A stretch of 10,126 nucleotides of DNA, taken from sequence record KU052038. One strand, given 5' to 3'. Of this stretch, positions 9,101 to 10,126 are shown piece by piece. Made by a program: the position numbers. Within the stretch, counting starts at the first letter, position 1. The number at the start of each line of letters is the position of its first letter. This DNA comes from Escherichia phage SerU-LTIIb.

Positions 9101-10126
9101 GTGTACGATTTTAAGACATTTATTCCAAGAAAATTTTCTAACCTTTTGATTTTTCAATCCGGTATCAGCGGTCTCGAAAACCGGAGTAGGGGCAACTCTA
9201 CCGGGGGTTCAAATCCCCCTCTCTCCGCCACTTTATCAATGACTTATCTCCCGACTTCCCGCCTTGCTTTTCCTAAACAGAACAATCGTAGAATATTCTT
9301 GAAGGGTTAGATCGTCACTGTTTTCTGTTCGATACTGTGACATTCAGCACTTGATTCGCTATGGATCTGACAGGAAGCTTTCGAGCGAAAATGTGCAGTT
9401 ATTCAGTCGTTTTCTTATCGCTCACCATTATTCTTTTAGACATTCATCCTATGAAACTGCCGCAAAGTTGGTGGTGGGAACTGAAGTTGCGTAGAGAAGG
9501 GGTCAATAATTGAGTCAAAAAAGGAACGCGGCCGTCAGATTAAAGCCGCGGGACAAAGTCCATAATTTCCAAGAGTTGTTGAATTTCCCAGCTTTTTTGA
9601 AAGCCTTTGTATCATACTAACAAGTAAAAAAGGTTTAAATACCAAAATTAACCTGTATTTTTGATAAGTCTTACCATTGTACGATTTACACAGTTTCTGC
9701 TCCTCCTTGTTGATAGTGGAAAGGGTGCATTGTGCACTTGCGTAAACATTTATGACGCGTTGATGTCCATGGTTCACATTTCCTTGTCAGGGGATCGACT
9801 TATTTGCGGCGAGGCATCATTCGTAACAGAGTATTATCTTTCTGAATGTAGTGATGAAATAGTGCTGCGCCAGCGTGAGCTGCGATTAAAAAGTAACCTA
9901 TATTTGCCCAGGTTTCGTGAATATTTTTTATCAGTGCTTTAATTTCGCTGTTTGGGGTAACAAAGGGAGACACATTGAAACCAAGGAAACTCCACGATTT
10001 TCCACTGTAAGCCATCAAAGCAATCCCCAGCAGAGGAAGTGCAAGGAAGGTTATATAAAGCATGATGTGCATTAGCGAAGCCGCTTTCATTTGCCAGGCA
10101 GGTGGCGGTGGCACAATAGAAGGATC

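Follow-up and report, generated by a model that had tools for sequence, protein, structure and literature searches.

A cassette shared by the serU–yodB spacer of Escherichia coli and lambdoid prophages most likely marks an unannotated small-RNA gene family

MicL and DapZ are Hfq-dependent, trans-acting small RNAs (sRNAs) that derive from the 3′ region of an mRNA and have a promoter of their own, and EcsR2 is an E. coli sRNA that arose from degraded phage DNA. The present locus, a segment of host DNA beside the tRNA gene serU with a homologue inside a lambdoid prophage, resembles each of them in part. Its closest described counterparts are PasA and PasC of EPEC E2348/69 (EcOnc51/52 in EHEC), which are prophage sRNAs described by Pearl Mizrahi et al. 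2021 (PMC8550237) and in a 2026 preprint by Zhu, Shabalina and Storz (10.64898/2026.05.13.724894). The homology analysed here most likely marks an unannotated sRNA gene family common to the E. coli core genome and lambdoid prophages.

The DNA under study (the window) is a stretch of 10,126 nt from Escherichia phage SerU-LTIIb (record KU052038) that matches E. coli strain 41 (NZ_CP076285.1) with 100% identity. It represents the late region of a lambdoid prophage carrying type II heat-labile enterotoxin (LT-II) genes. The annotation runs from a DNA methylase and tRNAs through a duplicated tRNA-to-holin block and lysis genes to the LT-II A and B genes, followed by degraded terminase and tail-fibre genes, the prophage end and yodB. 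The prophage site is the tRNA-Ser gene serU: at its other end, attL, the intact tRNA gene and a frameshifted integrase gene lie beside mtfA. At attR, the core consists of the 3′ 62 nt of tRNA-Ser(CGA) serU (9169..9230, plus strand), which are identical to the 3′ end of K-12 serU. ARAGORN called no tRNA at 9169..9230, as fits a partial gene, and the identity common to attL and attR is confined to 9169-9246. An earlier note on this DNA had placed the prophage end at the partial tRNA-Ser, and the boundary does sit there, at the displaced 3′ part of serU.

Between the last base of the partial tRNA-Ser and the stop codon of yodB, which occupies the minus strand from 9800 onward, lies a spacer of 569 nt (9231-9799). 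In K-12 MG1655, yodB ends at 2042898 and serU starts at 2043468, leaving a gap (2042899-2043467) of 569 bp. The two intervals are colinear end to end and equal in length, with three substitutions and no indels; K-12 has no element at serU, yet the same spacer is found there. The earlier note had put the serU–yodB distance in K-12 at only tens of bp, which would have made the spacer extra DNA. The true distance contradicts that figure, and colinearity with a prophage-free intergenic region is the outcome that the note itself had named as speaking against its reading. It had also proposed a search for att-like repeats in the spacer, which yielded nothing above chance: when a second copy of the 62-nt att core was sought in the spacer and over the 12.9 kb beyond it, the best matches fell within the range of shuffled sequences. 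Neither an integrase-like nor any other phage coding remnant was found in the spacer. On this comparison of sequences, the spacer is ordinary host DNA and not extra DNA left by the LT-II prophage. Its serU side (9231..9508) is variable among E. coli and colinear with K-12.

Part of this host spacer is nevertheless homologous to the prophage, as the earlier note had observed for 9490..9680 and 1736..1895. The homology is real, but its extent is narrower, 9518-9673 versus 1748-1895. A repeat search returned a 46-nt core (1748-1793 versus 9518-9563) with 83% identity, and the gapped local alignment over the full extent scored 38, compared with 15.1 ± 1.4 (maximum 21) for 100 shuffled spacers. A scan of viral contigs with a pattern taken from the conserved core matched 118 contigs; the pattern lies in the conserved 3′ part, so this part cannot show variation and divergent relatives are missed. 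Together with the copies in the window and in K-12, the viral matches comprise 56 distinct copies, on which we built a covariance model, R1. It assigns 100.8 bits to the phage copy and 73.1 bits (E = 3e-16) to the spacer copy, scores that are partly circular because both copies are training rows of the model. Among 5426 complete E. coli genomes, all but eight (5418, 99.9%) carry the spacer copy, with a median of one and a maximum of three places per genome, the extra places being prophage copies. Phage-type copies occupy 340 places in 297 genomes and also occur in one deposited phage record. The same core pattern, applied to a collection of genome contigs, matched two MAG contigs alone, each with a sequence identical to that of the E. 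coli locus; E. coli itself was not among the contigs returned. No Rfam family covers either copy, at E <= 1 for the whole window or at E <= 10 for the two copies, and RefSeq annotates nothing at the chromosomal copy.

The shared unit is best read as a compact sRNA gene cassette on the minus strand of the window, a reading to which we assign a probability of about 0.7. In the chromosomal copy, the predicted RNA of approximately 89 nt spans 9517..9605 (minus strand), equivalent to about 2043093-2043181 (+) in K-12. It comprises a 5′ hairpin (9590-9605), a second hairpin of sequence GGACUUUGUCC (9551-9561), a terminator hairpin (9527-9550) and a U6 tract (9517-9522), all on the minus strand. The adjoining promoter and upstream part (9606..9677, minus strand) contains a −10 element, TATGAT, at 9611-9616 and a −35 element, TTTAAA, at 9634-9639, and has the palindrome TAAGNCTTA at its outer edge. 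The phage copy is organized in the same way: a predicted RNA of approximately 80 nt (1748..1827, minus strand), with three hairpins in its minimum free energy (MFE) structure, is preceded by a promoter and upstream part (1828..1895, minus strand) with TAGTAT at 1833-1838 and TTTAAA at 1856-1861. A promoter scan identified the combination TTTAAA-17-TATGAT at 9639-9611. The −35 hexamer is weak (4/6 matches); the motif TTTAAAC, the 17-nt spacing and TAnnAT are invariant in all 56 copies, and the 5′ hairpin begins about 7 nt past the −10 element. A sigma-70-type promoter of this form would start an RNA of around 80–90 nt. The reading of the repeat as a gene is absent from the earlier note.

The three predicted hairpins differ in how they vary. 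In the 5′ hairpin, phage variants contain the arms GUCCCC/GGGGGC, GUCUCC/GGAGAC or UCUCUCU/AGAGAGA and the chromosomal copy contains GGCUUU/AAAGCU, with pairing kept throughout. The second hairpin, GGAC-UUU-GUCC, is invariant among the copies. The GC-rich stem of the intrinsic, Rho-independent terminator, CGCGGC/GCCGCG, is followed by six U residues in the chromosome and by four to nine in the phage variants. RNAalifold recovers three hairpins from the copies, and folding of single sequences gives three in both window copies (z = −2.5 for the phage copy and −2.0 for the chromosomal one), the z-scores being modest overall at −1.7 to −2.5. When the structure is written down, 95.3% of cells pair, compared with 40–53% when the partners are slid by 1–3 columns. 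Six pairs have changed on both sides, and the observed covariation score was reached by none of 500 shuffles, with the covariation mostly in one hairpin and one terminator pair. The strand is indicated by two features: non-Watson–Crick combinations in the first two pairs of the 5′ hairpin (alignment columns 9-32 and 11-31) are G-U on the minus strand and would be A-C mismatches on the plus strand, and a U tract follows the terminator on the minus strand only. Both place the sRNA on the minus strand. A variable stretch of about 20–30 nt is predicted to be unpaired in the phage copies, and the MFE fold of the chromosomal copy engages part of it in pairs; this stretch is a likely base-pairing ‘seed’ toward mRNAs. 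The stretch GGGAAAUUCAACAACUCUUGGAAAUU of the predicted RNA is a candidate target-pairing segment.

Published datasets contain signals at this locus. Term-seq mapped a 3′ end at K-12 2043181(+), with the flanking sequence AATTATGGACTTTGTCCCGCGGCTTTAATCTGACGGCCGCGTTCCTTTTTTGACTCAATTA, and classified it as ‘orphan’, a class that takes in long 3′ UTRs (Adams et al. 2021, PMC7815308). The 3′ end that we predict from sequence, at the last U of the tract (window 9517), corresponds to K-12 2043181 (+) and equals the Term-seq position. The Hfq RIL-seq tables reanalysed by Bar et al. 2021 feature ‘yodB.serU.IGR’ as an interacting RNA, with chimeras assigned to the 569-bp gap as a whole and without exact coordinates inside it (PMC8175672). 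In exponential phase, 39 chimeric fragments link it to one partner, and in the other condition 33 fragments link it to two; it is always the second RNA of the chimera, as sRNAs are, and its U-tract length is given as 6 (PMC8175672). The authors’ sRNA score for it is low, 0.01–0.05, because it has so few partners (PMC8175672). The feature values of the sole exponential-phase partner coincide with those of the ompF row (15 interactions, SIC 0.094), and these matching table numbers make ompF a possible identity of that partner. The predicted duplex energy with ompF, −19.6 kcal/mol, is no better than chance (−19.5 ± 2.4 kcal/mol for shuffles). If the RNA acts in trans on mRNAs, it would do so via Hfq, with ompF as a possible partner. 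Literature searches on a yodB/serU sRNA and on the sequence returned no paper naming an RNA there, and the region is mentioned neither in the Hfq-CLASH supplements nor in the TRIC-seq main text.

In K-12, the predicted sRNA occupies the interval 195–283 nt past the end of yodB, on the strand of that gene, and the mapped 3′ end might therefore be that of the yodB mRNA. The chromosomal copy might accordingly be just the terminator or long 3′ UTR of yodB and the phage copy a terminator module, with no independent sRNA. Inspection by eye and a scan of 9680-9799 revealed no convincing terminator between yodB and the element, and the ‘orphan’ class of the 3′ end (PMC7815308), which includes long 3′ UTRs, is compatible with such an explanation. 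Against it, yodB is missing in approximately 2360 of 5426 genomes (~43%), which keep the module. Matches continue beyond window position 9677 in only 3063 of the 5426 genomes, and the breakpoint between the E. coli alleles with and without yodB lies at 9677/9678; the 122 nt on the yodB side of it (9678..9799, 3′ of yodB) are specific to the yodB-carrying allele. ST131-type genomes lack them and contain 222 unrelated bp in place of the 995-bp stretch from 9678 through yodB and the yodB–zinT gap. The order in the ST131 genome that we checked is serU, spacer, cassette, the 222 bp and zinT, with a separate zinT terminator upstream of the cassette. The predicted RNA in this yodB-less genome is identical (R1 score of 72.6 bits), which indicates that the cassette is kept independently of yodB. 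Further points against a mere yodB terminator are that the promoter hexamers are invariant in all copies, that the phages have no upstream gene on the strand of the RNA, and that the conserved unit reaches 70 nt upstream of the RNA. We consider this explanation unlikely.

An sRNA gene cassette remains the preferred reading of the shared unit, and the phage copies give further insight into its limits. Only the first of the two tRNA-to-holin blocks in the window phage contains the cassette: the second duplicated copy has 40 nt in place of 1663-1895, which defines a cassette edge at 1895/1896. Three boundaries fall within a few nucleotides of each other, namely this right edge, the end of the homology (1895 = 9673) and the allele breakpoint at 9677/9678. 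The small palindrome TAAGNCTTA is found at this edge. The distal part of the phage cassette (1663..1747, minus strand) is a second, partial module with GGACUUUGUCCC, a different hairpin and a U7 tract; R1 recognizes it weakly (1674-1742, 19 bits, E = 0.012), and a terminator-like site lies at 1710-1687 (minus strand). It may act as a back-up terminator, judging from the first module of this phage variant, which has only U5, located 4 nt from the stem. Phage copies always precede the holin gene directly and in antisense orientation: each of the 90 viral copies that could be evaluated has a holin gene, from one of two families, on the other strand at a median distance of 283 nt. The phage copies are a diverse family of ‘moron’ cassettes. 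In lysogens, the prophage RNA would be expressed as a moron. Its full complementarity to the late transcript immediately ahead of the holin gene might also allow it to influence, in cis, this lysis transcript and with it the expression of the lysis genes.

The degree of conservation bears on how the chromosomal copy came to be where it is. Among nine distinct E. coli sequences, on which this constraint test rests, the 89 nt of the predicted RNA contain a single substitution, plus four homopolymer-length columns contributed by one short-read contig. In the same nine sequences, 26 of 286 positions are variable on the serU side (9231-9516) and 7 of 32 just upstream of the cassette. Over the promoter and 3′ module, the chromosomal copy is 73–84% identical to phage copies, and the minimum among phage copies is 68%. 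In the 3′ module taken separately, mean identity is 91% between chromosomal and phage copies and 92% between phage copies; the middle part is unalignable. From these values, the chromosomal copy appears to be a further seed variant within the phage family.

One explanation of this likeness is that a lambdoid prophage older than the present one once occupied serU and left the spacer, or 9517-9677 at the least, as a functionless relic. The segment is a discrete phage cassette that adjoins a tRNA attachment site, its orientation fits a prophage oriented like the present one, and its identity to phage copies (73–84%) lies inside the phage–phage range. GC content is low in the spacer (40%), in yodB (42%) and in zinT (38%). 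The 3′ flank of serU differs elsewhere: it holds a porin gene in Klebsiella, umuDC in Salmonella, a prophage in Citrobacter amalonaticus and shiA–amn in a related genome with a 91% identical MtfA. In the one genome of each that we compared, the cassette is absent from the serU flank and the whole flank is different. A Citrobacter prophage carries a yodB-like antisense moron between its lysis and terminase genes, with 76% amino-acid identity and homology to 88 nt upstream. The YodB homologue in Salmonella is not syntenic, and contigs encoding 85–92% identical YodB proteins are either E. coli-like or show C-to-T conversions. What speaks against a relic is that there is neither a second att core in the spacer or the next 12.9 kb nor an integrase-like or other phage coding remnant, and that 99.9% of E. 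coli genomes have the element, whose RNA is far more conserved than its flanks. Near-universal presence and this conservation suggest that selection has retained the element and speak against decay. Transfer in the other direction, namely capture of host DNA by phages at serU, also occurs. In phages ev099, mEp332 and PhiR70_1, the equivalent of window 9053-9508 is found in the b region with 94–95% identity; the block comprises the P arm, the serU 3′ end and 278 nt of host flank, and stops 9 nt short of the RNA. We had considered reading the copies of the left 278 bp of the spacer in ev099 and mEp332 as a P′ arm, in support of a relic, and rejected this: ev099 has a classical lambda attP and int further along. 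The separation of the block from them identifies it as a captured attR junction with host DNA, and by this sequence evidence phage capture of host DNA at serU demonstrably happens. A functionless relic is therefore improbable. The remnant of an earlier element proposed in the earlier note survives in a weakened form, as an ancient acquisition that is now species-wide, although no second att site, phage gene or integrase remnant accompanies it.

An ancient phage origin of the chromosomal copy is plausible and, in our assessment, more likely than not, and the chromosomal gene may descend from a phage cassette. Extending the reading as an sRNA gene, we tentatively propose, at somewhat less than even odds, that the cassette is a modular and horizontally exchanged unit, in which a fixed promoter and a fixed 3′ scaffold, made up of the GGACUUUGUCC hairpin and the terminator, frame a swappable 5′ hairpin and seed. 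Such units would circulate at the head of lambdoid lysis cassettes, and one version would have been domesticated beside serU in an ancestor of E. coli, becoming an Hfq-associated core sRNA that possibly acts on ompF. If so, strain 41 and other lysogens would make two paralogous RNAs that have a common scaffold but different seeds.

A small protein is a very improbable alternative to an sRNA. The candidates are an 80-aa open reading frame (ORF) at 9535-9777 (minus strand), a 50-aa ORF at 9361-9513 (plus strand) and a 19-aa phage ORF, and E. coli annotations sometimes list the two spacer ORFs as hypothetical proteins. However, no reading frame is conserved among the copies: alignment of the phage with the chromosomal copy requires gaps of 4, 2 and 2 nt, none of them a multiple of three, and phage variants have 1-nt indels in the 5′ hairpin and use different frames. 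In addition, the 50-aa ORF lies in the most variable part of the spacer, and the 80-aa ORF has the terminator inside it. Weaker still is a family of dispersed intergenic repeats or miniature transposable elements of the host chromosome, an option raised in the earlier note: the unit is short and non-coding, with sharp boundaries in unrelated contexts, but 5418 of 5426 genomes have it as a single chromosomal copy, the number of places per genome being one in the median and three at most, with the others in prophages, which argues against a dispersed chromosomal repeat, its boundaries show no terminal inverted repeats or target duplications, and its phage position is fixed relative to the holin gene, so that we regard this option as scarcely credible.

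The sRNA reading makes the serU–yodB spacer the site of a candidate conserved, unannotated sRNA gene in the best-studied bacterial genome, for which a published 3′ end coincides with the predicted base and the same gap is represented in Hfq interactome data that apparently nobody has followed up. If confirmed, it would add one more core sRNA to E. coli K-12 and provide a clear case of an sRNA gene common to phages and the core genome, in which the seed is exchanged and the scaffold kept. It would also widen the picture drawn from PasA and PasC, in that the gap upstream of the holin gene would be a preferred site of sRNA morons in lambdoid phages.

The locus can be set against four described systems. 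STnc100, PasD and Esr41 (Rfam RF02076, RF02676) are likewise prophage-encoded and lie in the same Q-to-holin region, and a weak STnc100-like match (1471-1664, plus strand) is found immediately beside the phage cassette. They differ from the cassette in strand and in sequence. Like MicL and DapZ, the chromosomal element is located downstream of a coding gene on the same strand, with a terminator in common, has a promoter-like site just upstream of the RNA and takes the second position in RIL-seq chimeras. In contrast to MicL and DapZ, its putative promoter lies in intergenic DNA rather than inside a coding sequence, and the upstream gene, yodB, is missing in ~43% of E. coli genomes that keep the RNA. 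With EcsR2 it has in common that it is a lineage-restricted E. coli sRNA candidate with phage-related sequence. Unlike for EcsR2, intact and diverse phage homologues with the same promoter and terminator still exist, and the present case thus looks like the transfer of a ready-made sRNA gene, not emergence from a decayed protein gene.

The likeness to PasA and PasC is the most extensive. They too are antisense RNAs whose genes occupy the gap immediately preceding the holin/lysozyme genes in lambdoid prophages, are similar in size (79–85 nt), end in a terminator with a U tract, and diverge in the 5′ part while the 3′ end is conserved. A further terminator downstream gives rise to a longer form, and an STnc100/PasD-like element adjoins on the other strand. 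In contrast, the best R1 score at the loci of PasA and PasC is 8.2 bits (E = 6.6), the sequences are visibly unrelated and the promoter is not the same. No core-genome paralogue has been reported for PasA or PasC, whereas the serU–yodB family has one in nearly every E. coli. We conclude that the cassette is a separate family which, by analogy, would work like PasA and PasC.

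The serU gene is rebuilt from phage DNA at attL, in the prophage locus of E. coli strain 41 that includes the early region (L146, 16818–16907). Compared with the host 3′ part of the gene at attR (window 9169–9230), the rebuilt copy has one compensatory pair changed in its variable arm, which reads GUGGGGGCAACUCCAC in the attL copy against GUAGGGGCAACUCUAC in the host part. Given this compensatory change, lysogens are predicted to express a slightly altered tRNA-Ser. Around the attachment sites, motifs resembling CTTGGAATAT lie at 9004–9012, 9057–9070, 9117–9129 and 9287–9300 of the window; they recur in the P arm, and at attL (L146, about 16740–16775) the P′ arm carries them as tandem copies. 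These repeats are probably integrase arm-type sites. The host flank also holds one exact GAATATTCTT at 9291–9300; by an estimate, chance alone would give about 0.02 exact matches across the window.

The attR junction of a serU prophage has also been captured by other phages. It is found in the b region of the lambda-like phages ev099, mEp332 and PhiR70_1, where it comprises the P arm, the 62 nt of the serU 3′ end and 278 nt of flanking E. coli DNA; the captured stretch corresponds to window 9053–9508 and to 3323–3778 in both lambda-like loci, L144 and L145. A classical lambda attP and int are present as well in ev099, the one of the three phages that was read at that point.

Within the phage, a tandem duplication (window 1121–2461 and 3027–4164; 74–100% identity) covers a tRNA pair, an STnc100-like region and the first holin gene. 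A tRNA-Arg(TCT) in copy 1 is replaced by a tRNA-Thr(TGT) in copy 2, and the predicted small-RNA cassette is found in copy 1 only. The STnc100-like match lies on the plus strand at 1471–1664 and is weak (21.7 bits, E = 0.25); it is closed by a plus-strand terminator at 1640–1660, has a duplicated counterpart at approximately 3372–3560, and is accompanied by a truncated Esr41-like match at 1650–1662. The segment 1471–1664 looks like a PasD/STnc100-type prophage sRNA arranged back to back with the sRNA cassette.

The prophage carries further cargo. The genes for the A and B subunits of a type II heat-labile enterotoxin (5219–6368) have the lysis genes on one side and a degraded terminase gene on the other, and are a toxin moron at the position typical for phage-borne toxins. 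In the early region of the strain 41 prophage, a gene annotated as a retron-system HNH endonuclease, another annotated as an AAA ATPase and a phospholipase D family gene (L146, 5427–7416) form probable anti-phage defence cargo.

Contigs identical to the E. coli serU–yodB spacer occur in two MAGs of unrelated phyla, Bacteroides (L004) and Bacillota (L005), presumably as contamination; E. coli itself was not among the matches of the scan that yielded them. A Logan contig of the serU–yodB locus (L138) carries numerous C-to-T changes along its whole length; this pattern suggests an artefact of the deamination or bisulfite type, not a divergent orthologue.

The presence of yodB varies within E. coli. 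Approximately 2360 of 5426 genomes, ST131 for example, carry a replacement allele, in which 222 unrelated bp (6510–6731 of the ST131-type locus L143) occupy the place of 995 bp with yodB (window 9678 onward). One breakpoint lies at the cassette edge, and the other falls at the stop codon of zinT. For E. coli yodB itself, descent from a phage moron is possible. Genes of this type are rare among deposited phage genomes; a yodB-like cytochrome b561 gene is found in antisense orientation in a prophage of Citrobacter portucalensis (GCA_013345705.1; L128, 3001–3540), flanked by lysis genes and HNH/terminase, and shares with yodB 76% amino-acid identity and, counting 88 nt upstream, 70% nucleotide identity.
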